From assembly GCA_048477415.1 (NCBI GenBank), contig DBGBEC010000311.1, positions 1-43,757 on the forward strand: DNA of 43,757 nt, written 5' to 3'. Within the stretch, counting starts at the first letter, position 1. Each line of letters opens with the position of its first letter. This document shows, piece by piece, positions 7,651-34,644 of the stretch. Source of the stretch: Candidatus Limivicinus sp. Its GTDB lineage: Bacteria > Bacillota > Clostridia > Oscillospirales > Oscillospiraceae. The notes under the pieces are model-generated. The model saw only the letters and a program-made list of their open reading frames with translations. It was not told the origin of the DNA and did no database searches. The position numbers and the translations under genes are program-made.

Positions 7651-7657
7651 GTTTTTG

Positions 7658-7925: not shown

Positions 7926-7960
7926 GCCGCCCCGTGAGCAGGTCAAACAGGAATATTTTT

Positions 7961-7990: not shown

Positions 7991-8016
7991 GGAGAGTTTT
8001 TATCTCTCCGGCAGGA

Positions 8017-8370
8017 GTGAAAGCCTTGAAGCTGAGATATACCTTAAAAAAGAACAGCGAGTTCAGGCGTCTTTACTCCCGGGGAAAAAGCGCCGTGACC
8101 CCCTATGTGGTGCTCTACTGCCGCCGGGGCGGGTCTGTTAACCGCCTGGGCTATACCGTGTCCGCAAAGCTGGGCCACGCGGTGGCGCGCAACCGGGTTC
8201 GCCGCAGGCTGCGCGAGATATACAGGCTCAACTCCCCCGCGCTGAAGACCGGATACGACATCGTCGTCGTGGCCAGACAGCGCTGTGTGGGAGCGGACTA
8301 CCGGAAGATGAACGCCGCTTTTCTCGCCGCCTGCGCCGAGCTGGGGCTTCTCCGGGAGGACAGGCCGTGA
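8017..8370 (+). CDS. rnpA: Ribonuclease P protein component
   Basis: It contains [16 protein letters not shown]...YVVLY...[25 protein letters not shown]. The GTG at 8017 abuts the RBS. The in-frame TTG at 8026, 8 nt after AGGAG, may be the true start. Confidence 0.9.
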
Positions 8371-8585
8371 AAAAGCTTTTTCTCGCCGCCATCCGCTTTT
8401 ACAGGCGGAGCATCTCCCCCATGAGGCCGCCCTGCTGCCGCTTTATTCCCACCTGCTCCCAATACGCGCTTGAGGCCGTTGAGAAATACGGCGCCCTGAA
8501 GGGCGGCTGGCTTGCCCTTAAGCGTATTTGCTGCTGCCACCCCTTTTACAGGGGCAAGCGGCAGATGTATGACCCCGTACCCTGA
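8367..8585 (+). CDS. yidD: Membrane protein insertion efficiency factor YidD
   Basis: It contains [55 protein letters not shown] overlap couples it to rnpA. Confidence 0.93.
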
Positions 8586-8613
8586 GAGTAATAAAAAAAA
8601 TTAGGAGTTATCT

Positions 8614-9972
8614 ATGTGGGCAACAATAACTAAACCCTTTGCCTGGCTGATGGTCAAGCTCTATGAGCTCACCGGAAGCTATGGCCTGGCCATCATACTT
8701 TTCGCCCTGGCCGTCAACCTCATCCTCAGCCCCTTCATGGGCAAGAGCAAGAAGAGCATGATGCGCTCCACCCGTCTTCAGCCCCGCATACAGGAGCTTC
8801 AGCGCCGCCACGAGGGCAATCCCCAGAAGCTCAACGCCGAGATGCAGAAGCTCTATAAGGAAGAGGGGGTAAACCCCATGTCCGGCTGCCTCTGGTCTCT
8901 TATCCCCTTCCCCATACTCATCGCCCTGTACAGCGTTATACGTCAGCCCCTCACCCGGATGATGTTCGTTGCCCAGGATTTTGTGACCACCCTCCAGAAT
9001 TTCTTTGTTGAGCAGGGCCTTTATACCATACCGGAGAAGGTCAGCGCATATTTTGAGATAGAGCTGGCGGAGCTGGCCCACAAGCACTGGGATCTGGTCC
9101 AGACCGGCCTGGCCGACAAGATGGACCCCCGGATGATGGACATCGACTTCGGCTTTCTGGGGCTCAACCTGGGCGAACAGCCCCAGTGGAACTTCTTCAT
9201 GCACACCGACTGGAGCGACGCGGCCGTATGGCTCCCCGCCCTGGGCCTCTTCCTCATCCCCTTCATCTCCGCCTTTTTGTCATGGCTGTCCATGAAGATA
9301 AGCAACATGTCGAACCCCCAGAACGACCAGGCTGCCGCTCAGATGAAGACCATGTCCCTGATGATGCCCCTCATGTCCATATGGATCTGCTTTGTCATGC
9401 CCGCCGCCATGGGTATCTACTGGATAGCCAACAGCGTTTTCGGCATGATAAGGGACTTTGTCCTCACCAAGATGTTCAAAAAGCAGCTTGACAAAGAGGA
9501 CGCTGAGCGCAATGCCCTTCGCAGCGCCAGAGAGAAGGAGCTGGAGGAGAAGCGCCTTGAGACCGAGCGGCTCCGGGCCGAGGGCAAGACCGAGAAGAAC
9601 AGCAACACCAGCAAGAAAAAGATCCAGGCCGGCGAGAAGCAGAAGCAGGAGGAGCGGAAGGCCGCCCTCGAAAAGGCCGAGCGGGCCGCCCGCCGCGAGC
9701 GGCTTGGCATAAAGGAGGAGGACAGACCCGCCTCCCAGGTGGGCAACCGCCGCTATGCCAGGGGCCGGGCCTATGTGCCGGACCGTTTTACCAACCCTGA
9801 AAACGCCGAGGCTGCCACCCTCGCCGCTGCGGAGGAGTCTGAGTTCGCCGCCGCCATAGACGAGAGCGTGGAGGACGACGTCATGATAAGCTCCGCCGCC
9901 GCGGAGACCGTGACCGAGGCCGAGGAATATCAGGACGCCGCCCCGGCCGAGGCCGACGGCGACGAGAATTGA
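8614..9972 (+). CDS. yidC: YidC/Oxa1-family membrane insertase with a long charged C-terminal extension
   Basis: The 60-kDa inner-membrane-protein core is present (LAIILFALAVNLILSPF...QPRIQELQRRH...NPMSGCLWSLIPFPILIALY...MPAAMGIYWIANSVFGMI). It follows rnpA-yidD, and AGGAG lies 6 nt upstream of the ATG. Confidence 0.92.
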   Translation: MWATITKPFAWLMVKLYELTGSYGLAIILFALAVNLILSPFMGKSKKSMMRSTRLQPRIQELQRRHEGNPQKLNAEMQKLYKEEGVNPMSGCLWSLIPFPILIALYSVIRQPLTRMMFVAQDFVTTLQNFFVEQGLYTIPEKVSAYFEIELAELAHKHWDLVQTGLADKMDPRMMDIDFGFLGLNLGEQPQWNFFMHTDWSDAAVWLPALGLFLIPFISAFLSWLSMKISNMSNPQNDQAAAQMKTMSLMMPLMSIWICFVMPAAMGIYWIANSVFGMIRDFVLTKMFKKQLDKEDAERNALRSAREKELEEKRLETERLRAEGKTEKNSNTSKKKIQAGEKQKQEERKAALEKAERAARRERLGIKEEDRPASQVGNRRYARGRAYVPDRFTNPENAEAATLAAAEESEFAAAIDESVEDDVMISSAAAETVTEAEEYQDAAPAEADGDEN

Positions 9973-18181: not shown

Positions 18182-18219
18182 AAGCCCCCTGCGCCTCGGC
18201 GCAGGGGGCTTTGTTTTTC
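18182..18219. terminator. Bidirectional terminator between htrA and the GH13 gene
   Basis: AAGCCCCCTGCGCC pairs with GGCGCAGGGGGCTT. It is flanked by AAAAAC upstream and TTGTTTTT downstream. Confidence 0.8.
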
Positions 18220-18235: not shown

Positions 18236-19933
18236 TCAGTCGAGCTCATCCACCGGGTCATAGCTCAGGATGACGGCCTGGTATGGGGCCAAGCGCAGCT
18301 CTTCGGCCCCGTCCAGCTCATATCCCTCTATATTTGACAGGATGAGCTTAAGAGCACGATAGCTCTCGGGCAGCCTGGGGCACAGCTCATTTTCAGAAAA
18401 GTTTCCTACAACGAACCAGTGTTCGCCTTCAAACTGCTTCTCATAGGCAAAAAGCTCTTCATCCTCGGGCCAGACCAGGGATATCTCGCCGTAGGGCATT
18501 ATCAGATTATCTTTTCTGAGTTTTATCAGCCGCTTGTAAAAGTTCAGGACTGAGTCCGGATCCCTCTTCGCCGCCTCCACATTTATCTCACCATAGTCCG
18601 GGTTCAGCATTATCCAGGGCGTGCCGCTTGTAAAGCCGCCGTTGGGAGAAGCGTCCCAGGGCATGGGGGTGCGGGCATTATCACGGGCCTTGCGGTGAAT
18701 AGCCTCCCACATGAACTCCGGGCTGGCCCCGCTTCGCTCACAGTCGTTCACAAAATTCAGGCTCTCAACATCTCTGAGCTGCCCGGTGGAAGTCCAGGGC
18801 ACGTTTACCATGCCTATCTCCTCCCCCTGGTACACAAATGGCGTGCCCCGCAGGGTGTGAAGGATGAGCCCCAGCATTTTTGCGCAGCGGACCCGATATT
18901 TGCCGCTTGTACCAAAGCGTGACAGGGCCCTCGGCTGGTCCTGGTTTGACCAGAAAAGGCCAAGCCAGCCATCTCTAAGCTCCCACTGCCACTGGGCCAG
19001 CCGCTGCTTGAGTTCGCTGAGCTTCCAGGGCCGGTAATACCACTTTCCCTGCGGCTGCGCGTCCATATCTATATGCGCGAAGGAAAACACCGCGTCCAGC
19101 TCACGTCCCGGGCCTGCCGTGTATCTCCTCCCCTGCTCCGGCGAAAGAGATATGCACTCGCCCACTGTGAATATATCCCTGTCCGCATACACTTTTTCCG
19201 CCATTTCCCGCAGATATTGGTGGATGGGCTCGATATCGCACATGTGTTCAGCGGGAAAAACATAGCCGTTCATGTCCTTCTCGCCCGAGGCGTCGGGAAA
19301 TCCCTCTGTCTTGCACAGGAGGTTTATCACGTCCATTCTAAAGCCATCCGCACCCTTTCCAAGCCACCAGGACATCATATCATACACTTCCCGCCGTACC
19401 GCCGGGTTATGCCAGTTCAGATCGGGCTGCTTTTTGGAAAACAGGTGCAGATAATACTCGTCCGTCGCCTCGTTATACTCCCAGGCCGAGGGAGTGAAGA
19501 ACGAGGCCCAGTTGTTTGGCTCCTTCCCGTCTTTCCCCGGCCGCCATATGTAGTAGTCGTGCTTTTCGTTGTCCCTGCTCTTCCGGGCTTCAATGAACCA
19601 GGGGTGCTCATCGGAACTGTGGTTCACGACCAGGTCCACCAGTAGCTTTATCCCGTTGGCGTGGAGCTTATCCCGCAGCTCCTCCCAGTCTGCCATTGTT
19701 CCGAACTGCTCCATGATATCCCGGTAATCCGATATGTCATAGCCCATATCGTCGTTCGGAGATCTGAAGACCGGCCCAAGCCACACAGCGCCTATGCCAA
19801 GCTCCACCAGATGATCCAGCCTGTTGATAATGCCCCGAAGGTCCCCCATTCCGTCCCCGTCCGAGTCCTGAAAGCTGCGCGGATATATCTGGTAGAACAC
19901 ACATTCCTTCCACCAATGCCGCTGATGTACCAT
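18236..19933 (-). CDS. GH13 alpha-glucosidase (oligo-1,6-glucosidase / trehalose-6-P hydrolase-like subfamily)
   Basis: It contains WWKECVFYQIYPRSFQDSDGDGMGDLRGI, DLVVNHSSDEHPWF, GFRMDVINL and the GEEIG region. AAGGGGG lies 7 nt upstream. Confidence 0.92.
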   Translation of the reverse strand: MVHQRHWWKECVFYQIYPRSFQDSDGDGMGDLRGIINRLDHLVELGIGAVWLGPVFRSPNDDMGYDISDYRDIMEQFGTMADWEELRDKLHANGIKLLVDLVVNHSSDEHPWFIEARKSRDNEKHDYYIWRPGKDGKEPNNWASFFTPSAWEYNEATDEYYLHLFSKKQPDLNWHNPAVRREVYDMMSWWLGKGADGFRMDVINLLCKTEGFPDASGEKDMNGYVFPAEHMCDIEPIHQYLREMAEKVYADRDIFTVGECISLSPEQGRRYTAGPGRELDAVFSFAHIDMDAQPQGKWYYRPWKLSELKQRLAQWQWELRDGWLGLFWSNQDQPRALSRFGTSGKYRVRCAKMLGLILHTLRGTPFVYQGEEIGMVNVPWTSTGQLRDVESLNFVNDCERSGASPEFMWEAIHRKARDNARTPMPWDASPNGGFTSGTPWIMLNPDYGEINVEAAKRDPDSVLNFYKRLIKLRKDNLIMPYGEISLVWPEDEELFAYEKQFEGEHWFVVGNFSENELCPRLPESYRALKLILSNIEGYELDGAEELRLAPYQAVILSYDPVDELD

Positions 19934-19945
19934 AAAAGCGCCCCC

Positions 19946-20992
19946 TTAATCAAAAGCCAGCTCCCGGCCCAGGCTGGCAGAGCCATATATGGCGTCTATG
20001 AGCCGCTGGACAGTGTAGCAGTTTCGCGCCGAGCTTATCGGCTCCAGCCCTTCCCTGACGCAGCGCACGAAATGTTCCGCCTCGTTTCTGAAGCCCTCCA
20101 TCCAGGCATCGTCCCGGGAAAAACTGGGCCTGATATCCGTGGAGCCGCCCTGCCCGGCGCCGAAGATCACAAAGGGTTCAAGACTCGCTCCCTCCCGGCT
20201 GCCGTATATCTTCAGGTTTAGGTCCTCTTCAGGGCCGTTTATCGCCCAGCTCACTGTGAGCGTCATGCTTTTATGCCCTTCAAAGCGGATGAAGGCCACC
20301 GCTGCCTCCTCCACGTCCATCACTGCCCCGTCCGACCTCAAGTCGCCCCAGTTGAAACTGCTCTCCGCGCGGACATCCCCCAGACGGCTATGGGTCATGG
20401 CGCTGACCGTAAGCGGTTTTGGACAGCCCATCAGATACCAGGCAAGATCAAGGGCGTGAACGCCGATATCTATGCCGGCTCCGCCTCCGGACAACGCCTT
20501 CTGGGCAAACCAAGGGTTGGCGGGTATTCCCCGGCGGCGGACCCATCTTGCGTCGGCGTGGTATATCTCCCCCATCAGGCCCTCTCTGCGGCGTCTGTCC
20601 AGGATGAGCGTCTCCGTGCGGAAGCGGTTCAGCATGCCCAGCATGAAGGTCACGCCGTTTTCTTCCACCGCGTCCATGATCTGCTTTGCTTCGGCAGCGC
20701 TGAGGGCCATGGGTTTCTCAAGAAAAATGTTTTTCCCTGCCCTGGCCGCCTCCAGCGCCATGGGGCAGTGCATATCAGTGCGGGTACATATAGAGACCGC
20801 GTCAACCCCGCCGCGGGCAAGCAGCTCAGAGTAATCGGTATATACTTCCGCGCCAAGGGGCTCCGCCAGGGCCCGGGCCTTGCCCTCTTTGCGGTCATAC
20901 ACCGCGCTTATCTCCACCCCTTCGCAGCTCATGAACGCGGGGACATGGAAGGTCCTCGCCGCAAGGCCTGCGCCAACGATAGCAAGTTTCAC
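19946..20992 (-). CDS. Gfo/Idh/MocA-family NAD(P)-dependent oxidoreductase (paralog C)
   Basis: The N-terminal Rossmann fold is MKLAIVGAGLAAR, the EKP motif is IFLEKPMA, and a C-terminal alpha/beta domain follows. Confidence 0.88.
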   Translation of the reverse strand: MKLAIVGAGLAARTFHVPAFMSCEGVEISAVYDRKEGKARALAEPLGAEVYTDYSELLARGGVDAVSICTRTDMHCPMALEAARAGKNIFLEKPMALSAAEAKQIMDAVEENGVTFMLGMLNRFRTETLILDRRRREGLMGEIYHADARWVRRRGIPANPWFAQKALSGGGAGIDIGVHALDLAWYLMGCPKPLTVSAMTHSRLGDVRAESSFNWGDLRSDGAVMDVEEAAVAFIRFEGHKSMTLTVSWAINGPEEDLNLKIYGSREGASLEPFVIFGAGQGGSTDIRPSFSRDDAWMEGFRNEAEHFVRCVREGLEPISSARNCYTVQRLIDAIYGSASLGRELAFD

Positions 20993-21011
20993 AGTTCAGC
21001 CTCCTCCCGGT

Positions 21012-22043
21012 TCAAAAAAGCTCTTTCAAATACACGGCCCTGTGTTCCCGGACCGAAAGCAGCACGGCAGACGCTATAGCCAGGCTGTTCAGGTTGTCTT
21101 CCAGCGTAGGAAGTTCTGTTCGCTCCCCCTTGAGGGCACGGCGGAGCTCGGCGAGTATGCCCTCCCTGTCAAAGCCGGGGAAGGAGATCTTATCCGCCGC
21201 CGGTATACTGCCCGGCTCGTCCGCCGCCGGATACAGCCTCAGTTCTTCTCCGGACAGCCAGGTGGCAAGGCCCCTGGCACACTGGACCCGCCAGTCTCCC
21301 TGAAACTCTGTAGGCGCGCCCACAGAACTCATATGGCTTGAAAACAGGGCCCGCACTCCGTTTTCAAACTCCATGTTGATGAAAAAGGATTCCGGCCCCC
21401 GAGTGACCGCCCATTTCGGGTTCCAGCCGTCCGCATATACGCTTTTTACATTTGAAGAGCTTAGGAAGCGGAGCATGTCAAAGTGATGTATACACACCTC
21501 ATAGGCCTGCATGCAGACCTGTTTACCGCGCCAGCCCTGAATATTCCATATATGCTCCCTGGGATCTGTCGTCATCCCGGCGCGATAATCCAACTGAACG
21601 AATTGCAGTTCCCCCAGCTCTCCGCTGCCGATACCCTCACGGAGCCGCCATAGTTCCTCCCGGAAACGGTAGTTCTGGCTTACAAACACCCGCTCCTTTC
21701 GACCCTCCATCCAGCGGGCAAAGGCCTTTGCCTGGTCCAGATCGTCGCACAGGGGCTTTTCGATAAGGACATTTTTCCCCGCAAGCACAGCCCTTTTCGC
21801 AAACTCAATGTGCGCGTAGTGGGGCAGCACTATAAGGACAAGGTCCGCCTCAAGCTTGAGAGCCTCGTCATAATCGTTAAAGCATTTTTCTTCCGGCAGG
21901 CCCCAGGCCTCCCGGGCTTTTTTTAGAGTCTCCGGCGTCCGCACCACAAGGGCCGCCAGTTCAAGATCCGGGCTGTCCAGAATGTACTTGATCCAGCTTT
22001 CACCCCAATAGCCATAGCCTGCCTGTATGATCTTGATATTCAT
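21012..22043 (-). CDS. Gfo/Idh/MocA-family oxidoreductase (paralog B)
   Basis: It contains IIQAGYGYWG, VLIEKPL and FVSQNYRF. It is 343 aa long. Confidence 0.85.
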   Translation of the reverse strand: MNIKIIQAGYGYWGESWIKYILDSPDLELAALVVRTPETLKKAREAWGLPEEKCFNDYDEALKLEADLVLIVLPHYAHIEFAKRAVLAGKNVLIEKPLCDDLDQAKAFARWMEGRKERVFVSQNYRFREELWRLREGIGSGELGELQFVQLDYRAGMTTDPREHIWNIQGWRGKQVCMQAYEVCIHHFDMLRFLSSSNVKSVYADGWNPKWAVTRGPESFFINMEFENGVRALFSSHMSSVGAPTEFQGDWRVQCARGLATWLSGEELRLYPAADEPGSIPAADKISFPGFDREGILAELRRALKGERTELPTLEDNLNSLAIASAVLLSVREHRAVYLKELF

Positions 22044-22077
22044 CCGCTCCTTTCAAAAAAGCTGCGGCGGGGAGGGC

Positions 22078-23232
22078 TCAGAGCTCTTCGAGAGGGATGG
22101 GCTCAAAGCTGGTTTTCAGTTCCGCCGCCATCCCGGTCTCGGCCGATCTGTAGGCGGCCTCGATTATCTCTATCACATGCCTGGCGTGCTCGGCTGTGCC
22201 CACTGCGGGAACACCGTTTATCACCCAATCCGCCAATTGGTTTATATCCTCAAAAATATGGGACTCGCCCAGGCCGACCTGATGGTCGTTCAGGTGCGGC
22301 AGGCCCATGTTGCTGCGGATGAAGTCCATATCCATCTTCCCCGGCTCGTACAAGATCACCTCTCCATTTTTGCCTTGTATCCTGCCGTCCATTATCCGCC
22401 CCTCGGTGCCGAAGGTTATGGTAGAAAAGCCATTATAATTCCCGAAATCCCCCTTGAGCGAGGTATACATCACGCCGTAAAACGCGTCTCCGAAGTCGAG
22501 TATCATCTGGGTAGAGTCGTCCACCTCAGAGGATATGGGCTTTCCGTCGAAATAGTATGTGGGCACGCGCTGGCCGGAGAAGGCTGTGACCCGCTTTGCC
22601 GGGCCGAATATGCCCGTCATAGCATGGAGCGCGTAAACCGTGCAGTCCCATATGGGCCCGCCGGCCGGGCGCTTAAAATACCAGGTGGGGTCTATTTTTT
22701 CCATGCCGCTGCCAAGGTCTCTGTTCGGCTGAGTACAGTGCCAATACAGCACCCCCTCGGAGCCGCCTATGGTCCAGCTCGGGATACCTATCTCCCCGCT
22801 CAGTATGGCCTTCCTTATCCGCCGCAGCGCGGGGGAGGTCATCTGCCCGGGGGAGGCTACGAGCCTGACCTTGTATTTCTCTGCCTCGGCGATCATTTCG
22901 GTGGCCTCATCGGCGGAGAGGCACATCGTCTTGTTAAAATGTACATGCTTCCCGGCCCGTATCGCTTTCATGCCCTGCTCGAAATGGACTCCTATAGGAG
23001 AGGCCAGGGTCACGGCATCCAGCTCCGGGTCCTTCAGCAGTTCATCATAGCTTGTGTAAAAACGGGGTATATTGAATTTTCTCGCCACATATTCCGCCCT
23101 GCCCGGCACAGGGTCCATAACGGCGGCCGCGAATACGAGCTCGCAGCCGTCCTCCTCGCAGGTATGCTGGCACACGGACTGTATGCCCGTTGAGCCGCAG
23201 CCGACGACGCCAATACCAAGACGCTTTGTCAT
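22078..23232 (-). CDS. Gfo/Idh/MocA-family oxidoreductase (paralog A)
   Basis: It contains LGIGVVGCGSTG plus the family's C-terminal domain. In place of the canonical EKP motif it reads VHFNKTM. The start is trimmed to MTKRLG at 23232, preceded by GGGAGA. Confidence 0.85.
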   Translation of the reverse strand: MTKRLGIGVVGCGSTGIQSVCQHTCEEDGCELVFAAAVMDPVPGRAEYVARKFNIPRFYTSYDELLKDPELDAVTLASPIGVHFEQGMKAIRAGKHVHFNKTMCLSADEATEMIAEAEKYKVRLVASPGQMTSPALRRIRKAILSGEIGIPSWTIGGSEGVLYWHCTQPNRDLGSGMEKIDPTWYFKRPAGGPIWDCTVYALHAMTGIFGPAKRVTAFSGQRVPTYYFDGKPISSEVDDSTQMILDFGDAFYGVMYTSLKGDFGNYNGFSTITFGTEGRIMDGRIQGKNGEVILYEPGKMDMDFIRSNMGLPHLNDHQVGLGESHIFEDINQLADWVINGVPAVGTAEHARHVIEIIEAAYRSAETGMAAELKTSFEPIPLEEL

Positions 23233-23295
23233 TATCACATCTCCCTTTTCAGCTATATGCTCCATCTGCCCCTACGGGATTCAGACAGAGCTTTA

Positions 23296-24282
23296 TTAAT
23301 AGCGTTTTACCAGTTCCTGCATATAGCTGACGAACTGATATGTACATTTCCTGTCGAACTCGTGCATTTCCTCCAGGCAGTTATATGGACGCTCCGGCAG
23401 GATAAAAGCAGGTTCTGCCATGAGTATCATGTTTTCCTTTCGCTTTGCCTTTTCACAGATAGCTCCCATTACGACGTCAAAATCGATAATGCCCTCCCCA
23501 AGGCGGCAGCCCTTCAATATCATTGGCATGTCCTGCCAGAGATGCTCAAACACCGGGTTATCCACGACCTTGAAGTCTTTGAAATGGGCCGCCACGGCCC
23601 AGGGCGCAAGAGTTTCCACGTCCGCCATTGGGTCGCAGCAGATTACAGCCCCGTTTCCTATATCGAACATCCCGCCTATATTGGGGTGGCCTGTCTCTTC
23701 CAGGATCCCGGCTATCTCACTGCCTGTGAAATCGCAGTGGTTTTCATAGGCCATCATGATATCTGTCCCCTCCAGCGCCCTGCCCAGTTCTCTCAGGTTC
23801 GCACAGACAAATTTTTTTATCTCGTCATACCTGAGCTTTTTGTTATAGCGGCTGTACCTGGTCTCAAGCTTTCCATAGCCGCCGCTGAGGGTATTGGCGC
23901 CGAATATGCCGCAGATCTCGATGATCTTGTCCAGGTACCGGCGGGCCTCCGCCGGTTCCATGGCTTTCTCCCCTGTGACCGGGTGCGGCAGACCGGCAAG
24001 GCTCATACATGGGACGCAGTATACGACATAGTGTACGTCCGCTTCCTTCGCTATGGCCGCCATTTCACGGACATAGCCCATATCCTCAAAGGCCAGGAAG
24101 CCCGCGTCGTATTTCTCACCCACCGGAATGCCGGGCACGGGCAGCATTGACAGGGCGTGGGCGTCCATCCGTCTGCACTCCCCGATATACCACAGGAAGG
24201 AATCTCTGCCTGGGGCCAGAGTCTCCGGGCAGCGGTTGGCAAACTGCTGAAAACCGATTTTAAAATTAAAGCTGTTATTCAT
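23296..24282 (-). CDS. Xylose-isomerase-like TIM-barrel enzyme (sugar phosphate isomerase/epimerase family)
   Basis: The family metal-ligand contexts are present: MMAYENH, MFDIGN, AAHFKDF and LMAEP. The start is at MNNSFNF (24282), preceded by GGAGGGAG. Confidence 0.8.
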   Translation of the reverse strand: MNNSFNFKIGFQQFANRCPETLAPGRDSFLWYIGECRRMDAHALSMLPVPGIPVGEKYDAGFLAFEDMGYVREMAAIAKEADVHYVVYCVPCMSLAGLPHPVTGEKAMEPAEARRYLDKIIEICGIFGANTLSGGYGKLETRYSRYNKKLRYDEIKKFVCANLRELGRALEGTDIMMAYENHCDFTGSEIAGILEETGHPNIGGMFDIGNGAVICCDPMADVETLAPWAVAAHFKDFKVVDNPVFEHLWQDMPMILKGCRLGEGIIDFDVVMGAICEKAKRKENMILMAEPAFILPERPYNCLEEMHEFDRKCTYQFVSYMQELVKRY

Positions 24283-24319
24283 ATCTCCCTCCACCTTCTT
24301 AACGAGATCTGACGCTTTC

Positions 24320-25161
24320 TCATCCCTTCACGGCTCCGCTCACGGTCATGGCCTTCTCCACCTGGGCGCTGAATATAGCATATATCAGGACCGTGGGGAT
24401 GCTGGCGATCACCATTGTGGCCCCCATCGCGCCCCAATCCGTCGTATATTCGCCCTGGAAAAACAGCAGACCCAGGGGAAGGGTCTTCAGTTCGTCCCTT
24501 GTGAGCAGGATAAGCGCCAGATTATACTCGTTCCACACCCCCATGAACACGAATATGGCCACTGTCGCGATGGCGGATCTGATGTTAGGAACAATGATCT
24601 TCAAAAAGCAGGTCCAGACCGAGGCGCCGTCTATGCATGCGGACTCCTCCAGTTCAAATGGCAGGCTCCTCATATAACCATACAGCACCATTATGGAAAA
24701 AGACAGGTTAAACGCCGTATATGGCACAATGACCGCCCATAGTGTGTTGTTTATATGCAGGTCACGGACCAGGACCGCTATCGGGATCATTATGCACTGC
24801 AATGGCAAAAACAGGCCGATCATGGTCAGCATACGCAGAAAATGCTGGCCCCGGAAGTGCATCCTGGCAGTGGCATACGCAAACATCGTGGCAAAAATGG
24901 TGACGAAGAATATCACGGCCGCCGTCACTTTCACGCTGTTCATGAAATATGTAGGCAGATCAAAGGTCTGCCAGGCCTTCACATAGTTTTCAAAGCGGAA
25001 GACCTGGGGAAAGCCGAAGGGGTTTGTGGTAAATATCTCCATGTTGTCCTTAAAAGAGTAGAACAGCATCCAAATGAGCGGATAGAGATTTATCACGGCG
25101 TAAACATACAGGATAAGCTTGAAGGCTGTGGAGCCCAGGGAGAGCCGTCCGCGTTTTTTCA
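24320..25161 (-). CDS. Carbohydrate ABC transporter permease (MalG/CUT1-type)
   Basis: It has six TM segments and an EAA-loop region (ESACIDGASVWTCFLKIIVPNI). The GTG start at 25161 (VKKRGRL) follows GGGGGGA. The track's upstream extension overlaps the preceding gene. Confidence 0.88.
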
Positions 25162-25176
25162 CTGTTTTCCCCCCTG

Positions 25177-26061
25177 TCAATATACAATGCGCTCCCGCGC
25201 CACCAGCCTGTTTATAACAACAGAGACAAGCAGGCACTGGGCCACCAGCATGACCGCCGCAGTGCAGCCGTAGCCGTAATTGCCCACTATAAATGCGGAG
25301 CGGTACATCAGATAAGTCAGAGTATAGGTCTGGGTGCCCGGGCCGCCGCCGGTCATGATGTTCATGCTGGCAAAGGCGTTTAGGCCGCCGGTTATGGCAA
25401 TTATCAGGCAATATTTGTAGGTCTCCTGCATGAGCGGTATGCTTATTTTTATATGAGCGCGCAGCTTTGAGCAGCCATCCAGCCGCGCCGCCTCAAAATA
25501 ATGATCGGGTATGGAGTTTACCGCCGACAAAAGCAGAATGAACTGATATCCGGTAAACTGCCAGGTGTTGACCACCGCAATGGCGATTATGGCCGAGTTC
25601 CCGTCCCCGCCAAGCCAGTTCTGCCTGTAGCTCAGGCCCAGCGTCTCAAACAGCTTATTTATCAGGCCATGATCCGCGTTATACATGGACAGCCAAAGCT
25701 GGGAAACGACGGTGATCGACAAAACCGCAGGGACATAGTAGGAAATACGGAAAAACTTTTTTTCTATCCTGCCGGAATCCTTTACGGCGAAGGCCAGCAG
25801 CGTAGCCAGTGGGACCTGCACGCATACCTGGATAAGGGCAAAGATCGTTCCATTTTTCAGGCCGGTGTAGAAAATCGGGTCTTTTAATATTCTGGCGTAG
25901 TTTTTCAGCCCGTTAAAGACGGCCGCATTCAGGCCGTCCCATTGGGTGAAGCTGTGCACGAGCAGGATACACAGCGGATAGAGCACCATGACGCCGATCA
26001 GTATCACAGTTGGCGCGATGAGCAGCGTTATCATGGCTTTATTGCCCAGATATTTTTTCAT
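25177..26061 (-). CDS. Carbohydrate ABC transporter permease (MalF/CUT1-type)
   Basis: The EAA loop reads FEAARLDGCSKLRAHIKISIPLM. The start is at MKKYLGNKA (26061), preceded by AAAGGGG. Confidence 0.88.
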   Translation of the reverse strand: MKKYLGNKAMITLLIAPTVILIGVMVLYPLCILLVHSFTQWDGLNAAVFNGLKNYARILKDPIFYTGLKNGTIFALIQVCVQVPLATLLAFAVKDSGRIEKKFFRISYYVPAVLSITVVSQLWLSMYNADHGLINKLFETLGLSYRQNWLGGDGNSAIIAIAVVNTWQFTGYQFILLLSAVNSIPDHYFEAARLDGCSKLRAHIKISIPLMQETYKYCLIIAITGGLNAFASMNIMTGGGPGTQTYTLTYLMYRSAFIVGNYGYGCTAAVMLVAQCLLVSVVINRLVARERIVY

Positions 26062-26126
26062 GAAGCGCCCCTTTCTTTCACTGAGGGGTCCCGGCAAGGC
26101 CCAAAACATGCCGGGGCCCCGGCTTA

Positions 26127-27452
26127 TCAGTCGCCTGTGACAAGGGCAACGCTTTCAATAAACTCCTCCGCGGTCATTACTCCCGCAAGAAGGCTCTGAG
26201 TCCCCTCGCCAATGACCGTATAGAGCTCCATATTGGCGCCGCTGCCGGCAAGGACGGTGGTGCTGGTCGCCATGCTTGTATACTCGCTCAATTTCGCGTT
26301 CATGGGGACCTGCTCCACAGCCATTGGAAGCTCGCACTTCACAGCGTTATTTGTGGAGCCGCGCTGAGTATAGTTATACTCCGAGTATTTTTCCGCGAGA
26401 TAGCAGGCTACCTCAACAGCCTCGTCAAAATGCTCGCTCCAGGCGCTTACGCCAAAGCCGGCCGCGTAGCCGTATCCGCCGGAAAACGCGTACATGGAAG
26501 ATTCCACAGTATCGGGAGAGGCCGCCGGAAACTGGATCCAGTCCACCTCATCCCCAAGCTTCTCTGTGGATGAGGCTATCTCCCACTGTCCGTTGAGGAA
26601 CATTGCCGCCTCCCGGTTATACCAGAGGTTCGTGGCCTGTTCATAATTCAGCGTGGTCACTCCGGTGGGAAAGGCCCCTGCCTCCGCGAGAGCCTGAAGG
26701 TCCTGGGCCGCCTTCAGATAGCCTTCCTCACGGATATTACGCGTCCCGTCCTGAAGTCCGGTCAGTCCCTCCGGTATATACCTGGTCACGATACCGTCAT
26801 ATAGGGTGTTGCAGATCCACTGCTCCTTGCCGAATATGGGCAGGACCGTTACGCCCTTGGCGGACAAGGTCTCGGCGGCAGAGATCCATTCGTCGATGGT
26901 GGCGGGTATCTCAACGCCGTTCTCTTCAAAGATCGCCTTGTTGACAAACAGCAGTGCTACCTCGTTCCCGGTAAATGGCAGGGTGTATATCTTTCCATCG
27001 CTGTGATACAGCTTGGATGTGGCCGTGGGGAGCACCTTGTCGACAAAGCCGTTTGCCTCCACTTTTTCCGTAAGGTCTACCACGGCACCCGCCTCTATCA
27101 TAGAGTCCAAAAGCTGCGCCCCGGCTATCCCGAAGATATCAGGCATATCCCCGGTGGCGACCATGGACTTAAGCTTCACCCCGTCGTCGGCCGGCATAGC
27201 GTCCAGCTCCAGCGTCACCCAGGGCATGTCTCTCGCAAGGCACTCCACCGCGTAATCATAGGGCTTTATCGTGTCGTCGTCTGAATAGCGCACATAGACG
27301 CGAAGAGTGATCGGCTCATGTTCGGCGCTTTCTCCCGCAGCGGGCTGTGCCTCCGCCGGGTCCTTCTCCGCCGGGCCTGCCTGGTCCGTGCCGCAGGCCG
27401 CCATGGAAAACAGCAGCACCAGGGTCATAAGCAGCGCAATTAGTTTTTTCAT
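26127..27452 (-). CDS. ABC transporter extracellular sugar-binding lipoprotein (SBP family 1)
   Basis: The signal peptide and lipobox read MKKLIALLMTLVLLFSMAAC. The start at 27452 follows AGGAGGAAAAGAA. It is the first gene of the operon. Confidence 0.88.
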   Translation of the reverse strand: MKKLIALLMTLVLLFSMAACGTDQAGPAEKDPAEAQPAAGESAEHEPITLRVYVRYSDDDTIKPYDYAVECLARDMPWVTLELDAMPADDGVKLKSMVATGDMPDIFGIAGAQLLDSMIEAGAVVDLTEKVEANGFVDKVLPTATSKLYHSDGKIYTLPFTGNEVALLFVNKAIFEENGVEIPATIDEWISAAETLSAKGVTVLPIFGKEQWICNTLYDGIVTRYIPEGLTGLQDGTRNIREEGYLKAAQDLQALAEAGAFPTGVTTLNYEQATNLWYNREAAMFLNGQWEIASSTEKLGDEVDWIQFPAASPDTVESSMYAFSGGYGYAAGFGVSAWSEHFDEAVEVACYLAEKYSEYNYTQRGSTNNAVKCELPMAVEQVPMNAKLSEYTSMATSTTVLAGSGANMELYTVIGEGTQSLLAGVMTAEEFIESVALVTGD

Positions 27453-27500
27453 TTCTTTTCCTCCTATTTTTTTATAAGCCGAGCCAATTGGCACAGGATC

Positions 27501-27529
27501 GAAAAATAGTCGTGCTTCGGCTATTTTTC
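27501..27529 (-). promoter_or_regulatory. Hairpin in the 5' leader of the SBP operon
   Basis: GAAAAATAG pairs with CTATTTTTC (9 bp, extendable with one mismatch). It lies about 50 nt upstream of the SBP ATG. Its function (attenuator or stabiliser) is unknown. Confidence 0.35.
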
Positions 27530-27635
27530 AGAATATAGCCGCCCTGATATTCCCGCTCGAGGCAGCTTGTACGATACATTTAATTATGCACACGGAGTCG
27601 CTTTTGTACATGGAATTTTCGTTTATCGCTTGTAA

Positions 27636-30896
<3,261 letters not shown>

Positions 30897-30939: not shown

Positions 30940-31713
30940 ATGGCTTTTGACCTTTCAGCCAAGCTCGATCCAAATGCGCCGAGAGCCATATATCTACAAC
31001 TGCTTGACATAATAGAAACGCAGATCACAGAAAAGAAGCTCGCCCCGGGGGATATGCTCCCCTCTGAAAACGAGCTGTGCGAGTCCTTCCATATAAGCCG
31101 CACGACCGTTCGCCTGGCCTTGCACGAGCTTGAGCTGCGCGGTCTCATCATGCGCAGACGGGGTATTGGCACATTTATAATGGAACCCAAGATCTCCCGA
31201 CAGTTGGGGAACCTCTACAGCTTTACGGAGGACATGAAAAAGATCGGCCTTATGCCCAGCTCAAAGGTCCTGAGCTACAGACTTTTGTCACGGGATGAGT
31301 GCCCCGCACCGATACAGGCCTTTCAGTCCCAGCGCATTATAGAGGTAGTGCGGCTGCGGCTTGCAGACGGGAGACCTATGCTCATCGAAAGGACCCATCT
31401 GCCAGTGGAACTGTGCCCTGATCTGTCCTGGGAGAGGCTTGAAAACAACGCGCTGTATTCCATCCTTTCCGAGCATTACGGTCTCAGGCCCTGTCGGGCG
31501 GTGGAGACATACGAGGCAGCCGTCGTGAACAAGGAAGAGGCCCAGCACCTACAGTGCGAGGCCGGTCAGCCGGCCTTTCTGCTGAAGCGCTCCACCTGGG
31601 ACACGGAGGAAAGGCTTATCGAGTACACAGTCTCCATCATGCCCGGCTCACGCTCAAAGTTTGAGATAAGCATGTACCGCGACAGTGTGCAGGTAGCCAG
31701 GAAAACGCTCTGA
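30940..31713 (+). CDS. GntR-family (HutC/UTRA subfamily) transcriptional regulator
   Basis: The winged HTH reads LPSENELCESFHISRTTVRLALHELELRGLIMRRRGIGTFI and is followed by a UTRA effector domain. The ATG at 30940 follows AAGGAGG. Confidence 0.9.
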   Translation: MAFDLSAKLDPNAPRAIYLQLLDIIETQITEKKLAPGDMLPSENELCESFHISRTTVRLALHELELRGLIMRRRGIGTFIMEPKISRQLGNLYSFTEDMKKIGLMPSSKVLSYRLLSRDECPAPIQAFQSQRIIEVVRLRLADGRPMLIERTHLPVELCPDLSWERLENNALYSILSEHYGLRPCRAVETYEAAVVNKEEAQHLQCEAGQPAFLLKRSTWDTEERLIEYTVSIMPGSRSKFEISMYRDSVQVARKTL

Positions 31714-31755: not shown

Positions 31756-33486
31756 ATGAAGCAGAGAAGCATCCACAAAAAGCTGACCAGGTCCTATCTG
31801 ATTTTGCTCGTGGCAGTGGTCCTGGTGCTTCTGGCGGGCTTTGTCATGACGCTTTGGCTTAGCGTCCTGCCGAACATGAGCCTCACGATGCAGAGCAAGA
31901 TAAATGAGCTCCAAAGCCGTGTGAGCGAACAGTTTTCCTATCTTGAGCGGGCGGCGGACACAGCCTTTCTCAACCTGAACGGGCTGGAGCCGCAGCTGCT
32001 TCTGGGGGAAGGGGACGGATCTTCTCTCGCCCGGTATAACGCTATAAACAACTGTCTGTATCAGATGAGGCAGGTCTATTCCGATGTGGAGCACGCCTTC
32101 CTGCTCGACACAGCCGGCAGCGCTTACGCGGACAACATTATTCTTGAAGAGCAACTCAGCGGGCAGTTCCCGGCCGAACTGAGCGAGACTTTGGAAGCGG
32201 CCCGCGGTAAGACCCACGTTTTTGGTATCCGCAGCATACCCGGCACCGGCAGCAGCGAACCCCTTCTTCTGGTCGGGAAGATGATACGCTGCATAGACAA
32301 CTGCCAGAAAGTCGGGTATCTGTATGTTGCCGCGGAGCAGACGACCCTGAAAAAGCTATATAATGAGCAGCTCATATGCCGGGGACAGGAAATATATCTC
32401 TGCGGCAGCGACGGGACCGTGCTCTCCTCCACCGATGACAATGCCCTTGGAAAACGCCCCGGTCTCGGCGAGCTGGCGGAGGACAGGCTCTTTGTCCGCT
32501 GCGATGGGAAGATATGCCTGTATAAATGCCTGTACGACGACACGATGCAGGCAACGCTCATCCTCACCATCCCGGCCTTCGAGCTCTACAGGAACAGCGG
32601 GCTGTCCATACTTGTCATCCTGCTGTCCGTCTTCGTAGGTCTCTGCCTGGCCATGTACGAATCCGGCAGCATAACAAGACGTATCCTCACCCCCCTGCTC
32701 AGCCTGACAAAAGCCGTTAACGAGATAAGCGGCGGGAATATGCGGATGCGCTGCCGCGTTGACAAGGTTGAGGACGAGATAAGCCTGCTTGCCGCAAGCT
32801 TCAACAGTATGCTGGACAGGATAGAGCATCTGCTGGAGCAGATACAAAGGGAACACGGGGAAAAGCTCCGGTCCCAGCTCGCTGTGCAGCAGAACAAGAT
32901 ACAGCCCCATTTTCTCTATAACACCATAAACCTAATAAGCGTTCTGTGTGAAATGAAGATGCACGAAGAGGCTTCGCATATGGCGCGGCTCACCGCCCAA
33001 TACTACCGCGGCATACTGAATGATGGGAACGACGTCATCACCATCGGGCAGGAGCTTCAGAACATAGAGCTTTACTTTCAAATCGTCCTCACCGGCAGGA
33101 AAGGCTTTTTTGAATATTCCATTGACTGCTGCGAGAGCGCTAAGGCCGCGCCCATACCCAAAATGTCGCTTCAGCCTCTTGTTGAAAACGCGGTCAAATA
33201 TGCTTTTGTCGGCCGTGAAAACAACCGCATCCACATCCGCGCCGAGGCGGAGGGCGGGATGATCTCCATCACCGTGAAAGACAACGGAATAGGCCTTACG
33301 AAGGATGAGTTCTCGCAGAAAATGGAGCGCCGCCAGGAGGGGCACTTCGGCATATACAGCGTGTGCGAGCGCATGAAGCTTCTCTGCGGCGGGAACTTTG
33401 TCCTGGAAGCCCGGAGCCATCAGGGCCCCGGAGCCGAGATCCTGCTGGCTTATAATCTGTCCGCCATAGAGGAAGGCATCGTCTAA
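31756..33486 (+). CDS. YesM-type sensor histidine kinase (two TM segments, HAMP, His_kinase, HATPase_c)
   Basis: The H-box is LAVQQNKIQPHFLYNTINLI, the HAMP region reads ITRRILTPLLSLTKAVNEISGGN, and the ATPase region contains PLVENAVKYAF and DNGIGL. Confidence 0.9.
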   Translation: MKQRSIHKKLTRSYLILLVAVVLVLLAGFVMTLWLSVLPNMSLTMQSKINELQSRVSEQFSYLERAADTAFLNLNGLEPQLLLGEGDGSSLARYNAINNCLYQMRQVYSDVEHAFLLDTAGSAYADNIILEEQLSGQFPAELSETLEAARGKTHVFGIRSIPGTGSSEPLLLVGKMIRCIDNCQKVGYLYVAAEQTTLKKLYNEQLICRGQEIYLCGSDGTVLSSTDDNALGKRPGLGELAEDRLFVRCDGKICLYKCLYDDTMQATLILTIPAFELYRNSGLSILVILLSVFVGLCLAMYESGSITRRILTPLLSLTKAVNEISGGNMRMRCRVDKVEDEISLLAASFNSMLDRIEHLLEQIQREHGEKLRSQLAVQQNKIQPHFLYNTINLISVLCEMKMHEEASHMARLTAQYYRGILNDGNDVITIGQELQNIELYFQIVLTGRKGFFEYSIDCCESAKAAPIPKMSLQPLVENAVKYAFVGRENNRIHIRAEAEGGMISITVKDNGIGLTKDEFSQKMERRQEGHFGIYSVCERMKLLCGGNFVLEARSHQGPGAEILLAYNLSAIEEGIV

Positions 33487-33534: not shown

Positions 33535-34644
33535 TTGCTGAAGATTTTGATAGCCGATGATGACGATATTTTTGCCGGCTTTGTACAGACCTGCGTGGAC
33601 TGGAGCGCCCTTGGCGCCCAAGCGCCGGCAAGGGCAAAGACCGGGCCCGAGGCCGCGGACCTCGCTCTCAGGCTCCGCCCGGATATAGTTATAATGGATG
33701 TGGAAATGCCGGGGTGCAGCGGGCTTGAATGTGTTGAAAAGATACGCCGAAGCGGAAACAACTGCGAAATTCTGCTGGTGACTGGCTACGACGAGTTCAG
33801 ATACGCCCAGTGCGGCGCGAGCTACGGCGTCACGGATATCATGCTGAAGCCCGTAAGCAGGCAGGAGCTTCAGCTACAGCTATGCAGTATCGTGAACAAG
33901 CACTGGATAAAGCGCGTTTCATCCCTGGTAATGGAAAGCCTCATGGGTAAAAGCCGACCTATCGGCATACTCAATCTGTTCGAGGAAGATCTTCCCAAGG
34001 GCTCGGTAATCGACCTGGCGGCGGAAATAATGAATTCCGTGATAGAAAACAAGCTTTCAGACCTGGCCGGACATATCTCCCGTTATATGCACGCGCTGGA
34101 AAGCTGGCGCGCGCCGAACAGCCAAATGCTCTGGATGTACAGCTTTCCCGGGCTGATCTGCGCGGAGCTTCTGCAAGAGAGCGAGGCTGTCAACATCCCG
34201 GCCCCTCTTAACGACAGACACGAGCTTGCCGGCGCTATCCAGGCAGCGCTGTTCTCCCGCACGGTAGATCAGACCCTTGCCGAGCTCTGCACCCAGACCG
34301 CCGCCATACTTCAGGGGCAGCACAAAAACGGCAGCTCCCAAGCCGTGGAAGATGCATACAGAATGATACTCGACAATTATTCCGACCCAAAATTCAGCGT
34401 CGCCGCCCTGGCTGAGGCCACCCATTTCTGCGAATCCTATCTAAGAAGAGTTTTTAAGGCCGAATTTGGGCGGTCTCCAAACTCACTTTTGAAGGAAATA
34501 CGGATGAATCAGGCCAGAAAGCTTATATCCGGCGGAAACATGCAGATACAACAGGCCGCACGCCTTGTGGGTTTTGACGACGCGGCCTATTTCAGCAAGT
34601 GCTTCAAGCAGTTCTTCGGCTATTCACCCTCGGAACAGAAATAG
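33535..34644 (+). CDS. YesN-type response regulator (receiver domain + AraC-family HTH)
   Basis: The receiver domain reads ILIADDDDIF...IVIMDVEMPGCSGLE. The C-terminal AraC HTH reads YLRRVFKAEFGRSPNSLLKEIRMNQARKLI...AARLVGFDDAAYFSKCFKQFFGYSP. The TTG start lies 9 nt after GGGAGG. Confidence 0.88.
   Translation: MLKILIADDDDIFAGFVQTCVDWSALGAQAPARAKTGPEAADLALRLRPDIVIMDVEMPGCSGLECVEKIRRSGNNCEILLVTGYDEFRYAQCGASYGVTDIMLKPVSRQELQLQLCSIVNKHWIKRVSSLVMESLMGKSRPIGILNLFEEDLPKGSVIDLAAEIMNSVIENKLSDLAGHISRYMHALESWRAPNSQMLWMYSFPGLICAELLQESEAVNIPAPLNDRHELAGAIQAALFSRTVDQTLAELCTQTAAILQGQHKNGSSQAVEDAYRMILDNYSDPKFSVAALAEATHFCESYLRRVFKAEFGRSPNSLLKEIRMNQARKLISGGNMQIQQAARLVGFDDAAYFSKCFKQFFGYSPSEQK

Follow-up and report, generated by a model that had tools for sequence, protein, structure and literature searches.

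A conserved operon of gut Clostridia with three Gfo/Idh/MocA oxidoreductases and one TIM barrel: a candidate oxidative glucoside-processing system

In Escherichia coli, the ycjM-V cluster encodes YcjS (D-glucoside 3-dehydrogenase), YcjR (3-keto-D-guloside 4-epimerase) and YcjQ (D-guloside 3-dehydrogenase). In gut Lachnospiraceae, the DgpA/B/C and DfgA-E systems deglycosylate C-glycosides by means of a Gfo/Idh/MocA enzyme and a xylose-isomerase-like TIM (triosephosphate isomerase) barrel. The BT2156-2160 enzymes of Bacteroides thetaiotaomicron, the dehydrogenase/OGE/AtHYD set of Agrobacterium tumefaciens (OGE, O-glycoside beta-eliminase) and the levoglucosan enzymes LgdA/B1/B2/C follow a general logic that the locus described here may share: once oxidised at C3 with NAD, the sugar is open to carbanion chemistry in a TIM barrel that depends on a metal, and the product is then reduced by enzymes of the Gfo family. 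Human, chicken and ruminant guts are rich in Oscillospiraceae and related uncultured Clostridia, whose carbohydrate metabolism has largely been deduced from annotation. The present analysis deals with a gene string carried by a 43,757-nucleotide contig of Candidatus Limivicinus sp., a member of this family (DBGBEC010000311.1; the whole stretch is called the window). Three Gfo/Idh/MocA paralogues, named GfoA, GfoB and GfoC, are encoded there next to one xylose-isomerase-like TIM barrel. It is probable that the string is a co-transcribed uptake operon, that its conserved Gfo/TIM core remodels a glucoside via a keto intermediate, and that it is distinct from the Iol, Dgp, Lgd and BT2156-60 systems.

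The operon consists of eight long open reading frames (ORFs) forming one co-directional string on the minus strand (18236-27452; ORF list and Pfam). The order is: solute-binding protein, two CUT1 permeases, TIM barrel, GfoA, GfoB, GfoC and a glycoside hydrolase of family 13 (GH13). A first-pass annotation of the same DNA had reported a tightly spaced co-directional string between these limits, which the ORF list and the gap lengths confirm. It had counted nine genes; eight are found, and its own list of products sums to eight. The gene contents that it gave are recovered by Pfam, i.e., SBP_bac_1, two BPD_transp_1, AP_endonuc_2, three GFO_IDH_MocA and Alpha-amylase/GH13. In the order of transcription the intergenic gaps are 17, 11, 37, 30, 34, 19 and 12 nt, the first of them (binding protein-permease 1) becoming 65 nt if permease 1 begins at its second Met. 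The ATG of the binding-protein gene, at 27452, has an AGGAGG 8 nt on its 5' side. Directly past the GH13 stop, an intrinsic terminator on both strands (18182-18211, read 18211-18182) is made of a 13-bp stem with 10 GC pairs followed by a T-tract; it also serves the convergent htrA. Because of the short gaps, the single terminator and the ribosome-binding site, the eight genes are predicted to be one operon. The arrangement is more than a chance one, because the same gene set is syntenic elsewhere, in at least 8 species-level metagenome-assembled genomes (MAGs) and at 62-87% protein identity.

On the upstream side, an AT-rich divergent control region of 433 bp (27453-27885) separates the binding-protein gene from a glycoside hydrolase family 2 (GH2) gene. 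It contains, on the plus strand, a promoter-like TTGACA-17-TATCAT (27748-27776; 11/12 consensus matches) and, on the minus strand, weaker promoter-like sites (27610-27583). An Rfam scan gave no RNA elements in or near the operon. Plus-strand ORFs overlapping the operon genes, e.g., 22027-23193, were rejected as antisense artefacts of the 55-59% G+C content.

The three Gfo/Idh/MocA paralogues (Pfam GFO_IDH_MocA) are mutually very divergent, as already noticed in the first reading of the sequence: their identity is 24-33%, and over the N-terminal domain only. GfoC (19946-20992, minus strand, 348 aa) is a putative glucoside 3-dehydrogenase of the YcjS/DgpA type. It matches DgpA (7xr9) over its full length (E 3.8e-42, 148 bits; next family 1e-26) and E. 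coli YcjS, annotated as D-glucoside 3-dehydrogenase, with 31% identity over 345/348 residues (E 5e-48). Judged from these alignments, GfoC falls in the same broad clade as DgpA and YcjS, about equally close to each. Because GfoC is a full-length homologue of these two characterised glucoside C3-dehydrogenases, a 3-keto-glucoside intermediate can reasonably be inferred. GfoB (21012-22043, minus strand, 343 aa) is the most divergent paralogue and has weak generic matches only, its top solved relative being at E 3e-12. GfoA (22078-23265, minus strand, 395 aa; alternative start at a Met at 23232) has the scyllo-inositol/L-glucose dehydrogenase 5ya8 as top solved relative (E 2e-16). KijD10 (3rbv) is among the weaker PDB matches of both GfoB and GfoC.

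Conservation was examined in 15 orthologues of each paralogue. E92-K93-P94 and H179 of GfoC, as well as E95-K96-P97 and H186/H187 of GfoB, are invariant. GfoA carries an NKT motif instead of EKP and has 100 invariant residues, K112 included. Because the catalytic Lys (in EKP, or in NKT for GfoA) and the conserved His are invariant, all three paralogues look like active enzymes under selection.

The TIM barrel (23296-24282, minus strand, 328 aa; Pfam AP_endonuc_2, E 6e-16) is a member of a rare family, with only 27 clusters (90% identity), nearly all metagenomic, in a set of 5.8 billion proteins. When 1.84 billion representatives were searched exhaustively with a profile, about 2 full-length ones at 50% identity emerged, the second with 268 bits, and the scores fall from 268 to about 180 bits beyond the family itself. 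The next-nearest family (P0030, about 180 bits) lies in an unrelated setting with short-chain dehydrogenase/reductase (SDR) epimerases, transketolase and aldehyde dehydrogenase, and provides no lead; another relative (P0028) is on a 2.3-kb contig, too short for its neighbourhood to be read. The AlphaFold2 model has a TIM-barrel fold with a mean pLDDT (predicted local distance difference test) of 86.8. In Foldseek it matches the whole superfamily about equally (template modelling score, TM, 0.55-0.64), i.e., ketose 3-epimerases, UlaE, AtHYD, YcjR, Art22, DgpBC and IolI, so that the fold is confirmed and the function not assigned. YcjR (6wn6) is 15th with TM 0.56 and DgpBC (7drd) 46th with TM 0.55. 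The likeness to the hydratase AtHYD (8ro4) is at the level of the fold only, with 13-14% identity.

Sequence comparison is more selective. The profile search of the PDB gave only 4ovx, Art22, AsbF and IolE (E 7e-6 to 5e-4); the AsbF structure is deposited as a probable 3-dehydroshikimate dehydratase. No chain of DgpB, DgpC, AtHYD or YcjR is found among the sequence matches (E up to 1) or the profile matches in the PDB, OGE and LgdB not being separately identified in the libraries, and BLASTP gave no match to YcjR at E up to 0.01. The first-pass annotation had drawn a parallel with the Dgp, Lgd and 3-keto-glycoside systems; generic fold matches are all that is found, and no specific relation to DgpB/C, LgdB, AtHYD, OGE or YcjR emerges. 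Its parallel with ThuA/ThuB is not supported either, none of the eight products matching the ThuA family (Pfam); moreover, ThuA is not known to be a xylose-isomerase-like TIM barrel. Among 20 orthologues, the invariant residues include E180, H182, D184, D207, N210, H233, K235, D236 and E290. The usual Glu/Asp/His/Glu metal ligands of the superfamily correspond to E180, D207, H233 and E290, and the metal site is thus intact. It is proposed that the TIM barrel is a putative beta-eliminase or dehydratase acting on a keto-sugar.

Family models lead to the same view of the core as a distinct one. With the inositol dehydrogenase model IolG (TIGR04380, cut-off 355) GfoC, GfoB and GfoA obtain 116.6, 85 and 61 bits, respectively; with IolE (TIGR04379, cut-off 290) the TIM barrel obtains 20.5 bits. 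IolD, IolB, IolC, IolJ and IolA are absent from the window and from every related locus. Orthology with inositol catabolism was rejected on these NCBIfam scores and on the absence of the companion Iol genes, and the idea of an uncharacterised Gfo plus TIM-barrel sugar system is upheld. The top score with the levoglucosan dehydrogenase model NF052479 is 94 bits (cut-off 650); BT_2158 (NF058561) and BT_2159 (NF058563) give 32 and 28 bits (cut-offs 750 and 650). From its sequences, then, the cassette is classed as a member neither of the Iol family nor of the Dgp, Lgd or BT2156-60 families.

Gene neighbourhoods were compared in metagenome contigs and in 17 GTDB species genomes, every locus being a MAG or a metagenome contig. 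This survey, suggested along with the first-pass annotation, finds the four-enzyme core (TIM, GfoA, GfoB and GfoC) with conserved synteny at about 20 non-redundant gut-Clostridia loci, as one-to-one orthologues with 41-84% identity to those of the window. The hosts are Clostridia MAGs, mostly Oscillospiraceae; a single bin (L020) bears the label Bacteroidaceae. The four genes are adjacent on every contig of sufficient length, one variant locus (L005) aside, and one-to-one orthologues of GfoA adjoin the TIM gene in all complete loci except this one.

Two classes of loci are distinguished. Class 1, to which the window belongs, has a CUT1 importer, the core and GH13; its divergent side carries a deoC-type aldolase, then GH2 or a Khk-type kinase, then a GntR regulator and a two-component system. 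In class 2, which is 41-47% identical to the window, the regulator is of the DeoR type and the CUT2 importer brings its own ATPase; the aldolase and the core are joined by a beta-glucosidase of glycoside hydrolase family 1 (GH1), an ABM-domain protein of 95 aa and a kinase of the hexokinase family or the Khk type. The CUT2 binding protein weakly matches a rhizopine binding protein. A hybrid locus (L026, 11361-16972) has GH1 and GH13 in tandem after the core, then a GH35/42-like enzyme (DUF5597) and a BD-FAE/Abhydrolase_3 esterase. The four-enzyme core is therefore the invariant unit, while the transporter (CUT1 or CUT2), the glycosidase (GH13, GH1 or both) and the regulator (GntR plus two-component system, or DeoR) are interchangeable.

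Several details of these loci deserve mention. The order of TIM and GfoA is inverted among close class-1 loci (L001, L007, L011, L013, L016 and L026 vs. the window, L008, L009, L010 and L012), the rest being collinear. In the L005 variant (6785-9903) the TIM barrel is 53% identical to that of the window and GfoB is split into two ORFs, by a frameshift or an assembly error. The locus labelled Bacteroidaceae has the same class-2 layout and near-identical scores as that of a Clostridiales MAG (L019); its label is probably a binning error and not a transfer between phyla. In class 2, the ABM-domain protein is always between GH1 and the kinase (e.g., L017:15787-16074), and a phosphotransferase of the APH family often adjoins the DeoR regulator (e.g., L017:3474-4334). 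An esterase is also found near the class-2 cassette of GCA_016648615; the esterases may hint at an acylated substrate.

The aldolase is a frequent companion of the core. It passes the deoC equivalog model TIGR00126 (191-197 bits, cut-off 117), its PDB matches at E <= 1e-20 are all deposited as deoxyribose-phosphate aldolases (DERA) or aldolases, and three catalytic-lysine motifs are conserved. This DERA homologue is adjacent to the core in 22/24 related places with a readable flank (near-identical copies counted) and is linked in every informative related locus except L005. In relatives of the window it lies between the binding-protein gene and GH2 (L007:4476-5237; L008:5735-6451), and some of them also have a Khk-type kinase; a kinase, Khk-type or hexokinase-type, is found in most related loci. 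In the window GH2 directly abuts the 433-bp spacer, in which no DERA remnant is found. Neither the operon nor the rest of the 43.7-kb window contains a kinase, aldolase or phosphotransferase system (PTS) gene according to Pfam and homology scans, and a search of the window for homologues of the cassette aldolase, kinase, ABM protein and GH1 gave nothing better than E 0.1. The first-pass statement that kinase, aldolase and PTS are lacking is thus true for the string, and even for the whole window, but misleading, since orthologous cassettes almost always carry the DERA-type aldolase and usually a kinase. This linkage across the family suggests that the route, family-wide, ends in aldol cleavage and not in the regeneration of glucose.

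The glycosidases linked to the core show a second common feature. GH13 (18236-19933, minus strand; Pfam Alpha-amylase, E 3e-154) is an exo-alpha-glucosidase of the oligo-1,6-glucosidase type. Its nearest structures are the oligo-1,6-glucosidases 9u7v and 1uok (E 1e-197 or better), and its identity to bona fide oligo-1,6-glucosidases is about 55%. Aligned to 1uok and 9u7v, the catalytic residues are intact, i.e., the nucleophile motif GFRMDVIN, the acid/base TVGE and the D of NQD; region I (DLVVNH), with its His, is also intact. Region IV, however, reads NQDQPR and not NHDQPR (Q331, codon about 18941-18943; 'snQdqpr' vs. 'nnHdqpr' in the alignment). NQD occurs in 22/22 clusters of GH13 orthologues (at least 61% identity), vs. 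NHD in 97 of the 98 next-nearest homologues (at most 57% identity), the remaining one being unmatched by the pattern.

The GH1 enzymes of class 2 have a comparable change: their acid/base motif is T-I-L-E-P vs. T-x-N-E-P in the family (e.g., L017:14433-15785; L004, L015, L018-L021, L026, L027). LEP is found in 37 of the 38 scorable clusters of this clade and QEP in the other one, while 79 of the 80 nearest homologues outside it have NEP (1 unmatched). The His of GH13 region IV (O2/O3) and the Asn of the GH1 NEP motif (O2) hydrogen-bond the sugar in subsite -1. Both variant glycosidases stand side by side in one operon (L026). Two unrelated glycosidase folds thus seem to have lost independently an O2 contact where they are linked to the core and to an aldolase of the DERA type, a kind specific for 2-deoxy-aldose phosphates. 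The change appears specific to the GH13 and GH1 clades, because the active site of the neighbouring GH2 is canonical.

Taken together, these features lead to a tentative reading, preferred here though still more likely to fail than to hold: an imported glucoside would be oxidatively 2-deoxygenated by the core, then hydrolysed, phosphorylated and aldol-cleaved. The CUT1 system would import an alpha-glucoside-type di- or oligosaccharide, to be processed in the cytoplasm by the four-enzyme module. GfoC would oxidise C3 of the terminal glucosyl residue. The metal-dependent TIM barrel would deprotonate C4 to give a 3,4-enediolate, as YcjR does, and the 2-hydroxyl would be expelled in a beta-hydroxy-ketone dehydration of the IolE/AsbF type. 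The resulting 3,4-diketone would be reduced by GfoA and GfoB to a 2-deoxy-glucoside, which the variant GH13 (or GH1) would hydrolyse. In complete cassettes, a Khk- or hexokinase-type kinase and the DERA-type aldolase would convert the 2-deoxy-hexose to acetaldehyde and a tetrose 4-phosphate. The steps of the core would be one oxidation, a dehydration and two reductions, in line with three Gfo enzymes and one TIM barrel. The 2-deoxy logic is suggested by the linked DERA homologue, the kinases and the clade-specific O2-site changes of GH13 and GH1, and the dehydratase type of the TIM barrel by the fact that its only PDB profile matches are the four mentioned above. The scheme in its full form, i.e., an unprecedented catabolic C2-deoxygenation with a new TIM dehydratase acting across C2-C3, variant GH13/GH1 and a DERA yielding acetaldehyde and erythrose 4-phosphate (a phosphoketolase-like C2+C4 split of a hexose), is doubtful. 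Searches of the literature on the cassette, on a 2-deoxyglucose/DERA route and on 3-keto-glycoside pathways gave no account of the system.

Several points weigh against 2-deoxygenation. An identity of about 30% to YcjS and DgpA does not fix the carbon oxidised by GfoC, and IolE and AsbF resemble the TIM barrel only weakly (E 5e-5 to 5e-4). The window itself has no aldolase and no kinase, the end of the pathway being extrapolated from relatives, and the L005 variant has neither GfoA nor the aldolase. That O2 is bound by the GH13 His and by the GH1 Asn is taken from textbook knowledge. To our knowledge, no Gfo/Idh/MocA plus TIM-barrel system is known for catabolic C2 deoxygenation, nor is the action of DERA on a 2-deoxy-hexose 6-phosphate established. 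Finally, an ordinary glucosidase could split such a glucoside, and deoxygenating it first brings no obvious physiological benefit.

Four other explanations were weighed against it. In the model of the first-pass annotation, C3 oxidation would be followed by a beta-elimination in the TIM barrel that breaks the glycosidic bond; the glycal would be hydrated and the 3-keto-glucose reduced to glucose by the other Gfo paralogues, after the pattern of the Lgd, DgpABC and BT2156-60/Agrobacterium routes. The YcjS/DgpA-like GfoC, the intact metal site, the superposition of the TIM model on AtHYD and DgpBC (TM about 0.55-0.6) and the presence of several Gfo paralogues, which could act as oxidant and reductants, agree with it. 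It is nevertheless unlikely: the single TIM gene has no sequence relation to DgpB/C or AtHYD (OGE and LgdB not being separately identified in the libraries), the levoglucosan dehydrogenase, BT_2158 and BT_2159 models remain far under cut-off, and the conserved DERA and kinase would be left unexplained. Moreover, every cassette keeps a glycoside hydrolase, superfluous in a non-hydrolytic route, and its O2-contact residue is specifically altered. The oxidative 3-keto processing proposed at first is retained as reasonable, GfoC being homologous to glucoside C3-dehydrogenases, and the non-hydrolytic cleavage is not. A Ycj-like epimerisation, in which an unusual glycoside (e.g., an alloside, guloside or galactoside-type epimer) would be brought to a glycosidase-cleavable form through 3-keto steps and a TIM epimerase, shares the most architecture with the locus: an ABC (ATP-binding cassette) importer, a dehydrogenase, a TIM barrel, a second dehydrogenase and a GH13-family enzyme parallel E. 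coli ycjN-S, the identities of GfoC to YcjS (31%) and of permease 2 to YcjP (29%) point the same way, the fold search also matches YcjR, and a second inversion could be assigned to the extra Gfo paralogue. Against this stand the lack of a BLAST match between the TIM barrel and YcjR and the absence of a YcjQ-type zinc alcohol dehydrogenase. In addition, an ordinary glucoside as product predicts the canonical GH13 His and GH1 Asn, and the DERA linkage finds no explanation; epimerisation is thus held to be unlikely as well.

It is also conceivable that the glycosidases free an aglycone, e.g., a cyclitol or polyol, and that an IolG/IolE-like core catabolises this aglycone and not glucose. The weak IolE and AsbF profile matches of the TIM barrel, the scyllo-inositol dehydrogenase as top solved relative of GfoA and the CUT2 importers of class 2, of monosaccharide/cyclitol type and with a binding protein weakly matching the rhizopine one, would fit. 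Yet all Iol models are far under cut-off, IolD, IolB, IolC, IolJ, IolA or a ring-opening enzyme are found in no locus, the substitutions affect the -1 (glycone) subsite and point to a modified glycone, and glucosides are the substrates of the characterised enzymes closest to GfoC. An aglycone as true substrate is therefore quite improbable. Least probable by far is an ordinary isomaltose, alpha-glucoside or lactose locus with the oxidoreductases as accessory or unrelated passengers. The GH13 identity of about 55% to bona fide oligo-1,6-glucosidases and the canonical GH2 would be expected from such a locus, but the four-enzyme block is the invariant part while transporter and glycosidase are exchangeable, the genes are tightly packed before a single terminator, and the GH13 clade substitution is found only in operon-linked copies. 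For want of evidence, several substrates were set aside: 1,5-anhydroglucitol or 1,5-anhydrofructose, from which 1-deoxy instead of 2-deoxy compounds arise, as well as aldobionic acids, Amadori compounds and the sugar alcohols derived from maltitol or lactitol; glycal hydration by the glycosidases was set aside likewise. Oxidative 2-deoxygenation followed by hydrolysis remains the preferred, tentative reading. As for the first-pass annotation, its observation is essentially right and its interpretation partly right.

The first three genes of the operon encode the uptake system. The solute-binding lipoprotein (26127-27452, minus strand; Pfam SBP_bac_1, E 1e-21) begins with MKKLIALLMTLVLLFSMAAC, a lipoprotein signal with its lipobox (…LFSMAAC), and has 46-73% identity to its orthologues in class-1 loci. 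Its nearest solved structures bind xylo- or chitin oligosaccharides and are distant (E 1e-30), so that the specificity is not inferable from them. Permease 1 (25177-26109, minus strand; Pfam BPD_transp_1) is MalF/UgpA-like; its top NCBIfam matches, UgpA and GlcT, are both under cut-off, and it is 63-82% identical to its orthologues. Permease 2 (PermB; 24320-25165, minus strand; Pfam BPD_transp_1) is MalG-like, with 29% identity to E. coli YcjP and 64-87% to its orthologues. With a family 1 binding protein and two BPD_transp_1 permeases (Pfam), the set has the make-up of a CUT1 importer. There is no ATPase gene in the operon; Firmicute CUT1 systems are usually without an operon-borne ATPase, which is encoded elsewhere.

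On the other side of the control region, four plus-strand genes follow one another. The first (27886-30896, ATG at 27886) encodes a divergently transcribed LacZ-type GH2 beta-galactosidase with the Pfam GH2 N-terminal, TIM and Bgal_small_N domains; the NCBIfam LacZ-type models give 746-770 bits, under the equivalog cut-offs, and the active-site motifs WSMGNES and ILCEYSH are intact, i.e., canonical. It is syntenic with the cassette in L001, L007, L008, L009 and L013. Next come a GntR/UTRA regulator of the HutC type (30940-31713; Pfam GntR and UTRA), syntenic with the cassette in L001, L008, L010, L011, L014 and L026, a YesM-type sensor (31756-33486; Pfam HAMP and His_kinase) and a YesN-type response regulator with an AraC output domain (33535-34644; Pfam). 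The YesM/YesN pair flanks the cassette in L001, L005, L008 and L010. The GH2, the GntR/UTRA regulator and the YesMN system probably trim and sense the substrate.

The remaining genes of the window belong to chromosomal housekeeping, i.e., ddl, alr, queH, yidC, jag, lepA, htrA, trkAH and an LtaS-like gene. Within 36824-40995 (plus strand), trkA is followed by two tandem genes of the TrkH family (38185-39621 and 39652-40995). A thiamine pyrophosphate (TPP) riboswitch (Rfam RF00059, 56.9 bits; 6939-7048, plus strand) lies upstream of a 181-aa ORF (7105-7650).

The cassette is conserved across many species-level MAGs, and its TIM barrel and three Gfo enzymes reach no curated family model beyond the superfamily level. 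If the core acts via 3-keto-glucosides, gut Firmicutes would join Bacteroides, Agrobacterium and E. coli as hosts of oxidative glycoside processing, with another set of enzymes. If the 2-deoxygenation were true, it would mean (i) a new type of catabolic reaction for the Gfo/TIM-barrel pairing; (ii) a physiological role of DERA outside nucleoside catabolism; (iii) natural variants of GH13 and GH1 tuned to 2-deoxy-glycosides, of use in biocatalysis. The changes from His to Gln and from Asn to Leu, each specific to its clade, offer simple handles for direct testing.

The comparison with known systems can be summarized as follows. Among them, E. coli ycjM-V is like the window operon in combining a CUT1 importer, a Gfo/Idh/MocA glucoside 3-dehydrogenase (putative in the window), a xylose-isomerase-like TIM barrel and a GH13-family enzyme. 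In E. coli the glycoside is remodelled via a 3-keto intermediate before the glycosidic bond breaks, and the window operon would do likewise. The counterpart of YcjS is GfoC, as a homologue and without the same activity being implied. The differences are nevertheless several: the TIM barrel has no detectable sequence relation to YcjR; the operon has no zinc medium-chain dehydrogenase of the YcjQ type (Pfam; no window protein matches YcjQ) and two further Gfo paralogues instead; cleavage is by a hydrolase and not by a phosphorylase; and a DERA aldolase and a kinase go with the cassette family, in whose glycosidases the O2 contacts are altered.

With the Dgp and Dfg systems, the cassette shares the host group (gut Clostridia), the association of a Gfo enzyme with a TIM barrel and the homology of GfoC to DgpA. 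On the contrary, the window has a single TIM gene, no DgpB/DgpC heteromer and no sequence match to DgpB/C, and its core goes with glycosidases and an ABC importer for sugars, while nothing points to a polyphenol as substrate. The BT2156-2160, Agrobacterium and Lgd routes have two TIM-type steps (LgdB1 and LgdB2, or lyase and hydratase), while there is one TIM gene per cassette in every locus; the known beta-elimination arrangement evoked in the first-pass annotation is thus not reproduced. Moreover, the cassette keeps a hydrolase, and its route would end with an aldolase, not with glucose. The myo-/scyllo-inositol catabolism (IolG, IolX, IolW, IolE, IolI) uses the same two protein superfamilies, IolE being a TIM-barrel beta-hydroxy-ketone dehydratase.

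For the chemistry proposed here, a parallel exists in the 2-deoxygenation of thymidine diphosphate (TDP) sugars in antibiotic biosynthesis, which uses a 2,3-dehydratase and a Gfo/Idh/MocA 3-ketoreductase such as KijD10. The loss of water at C2 via a 3,4-enediolate, followed by reduction of the ketone by a Gfo-family enzyme, would be common to both. The TDP-sugar route is, however, biosynthetic, acts on nucleotide sugars and has a Nudix-fold dehydratase, whereas the one proposed here would be catabolic, act on a free glycoside and depend on a TIM-barrel dehydratase. In conclusion, the cassette is best seen as a variation on the known theme of oxidative sugar processing by Gfo/Idh/MocA enzymes and TIM barrels, with a real chance that it represents a new type of pathway.

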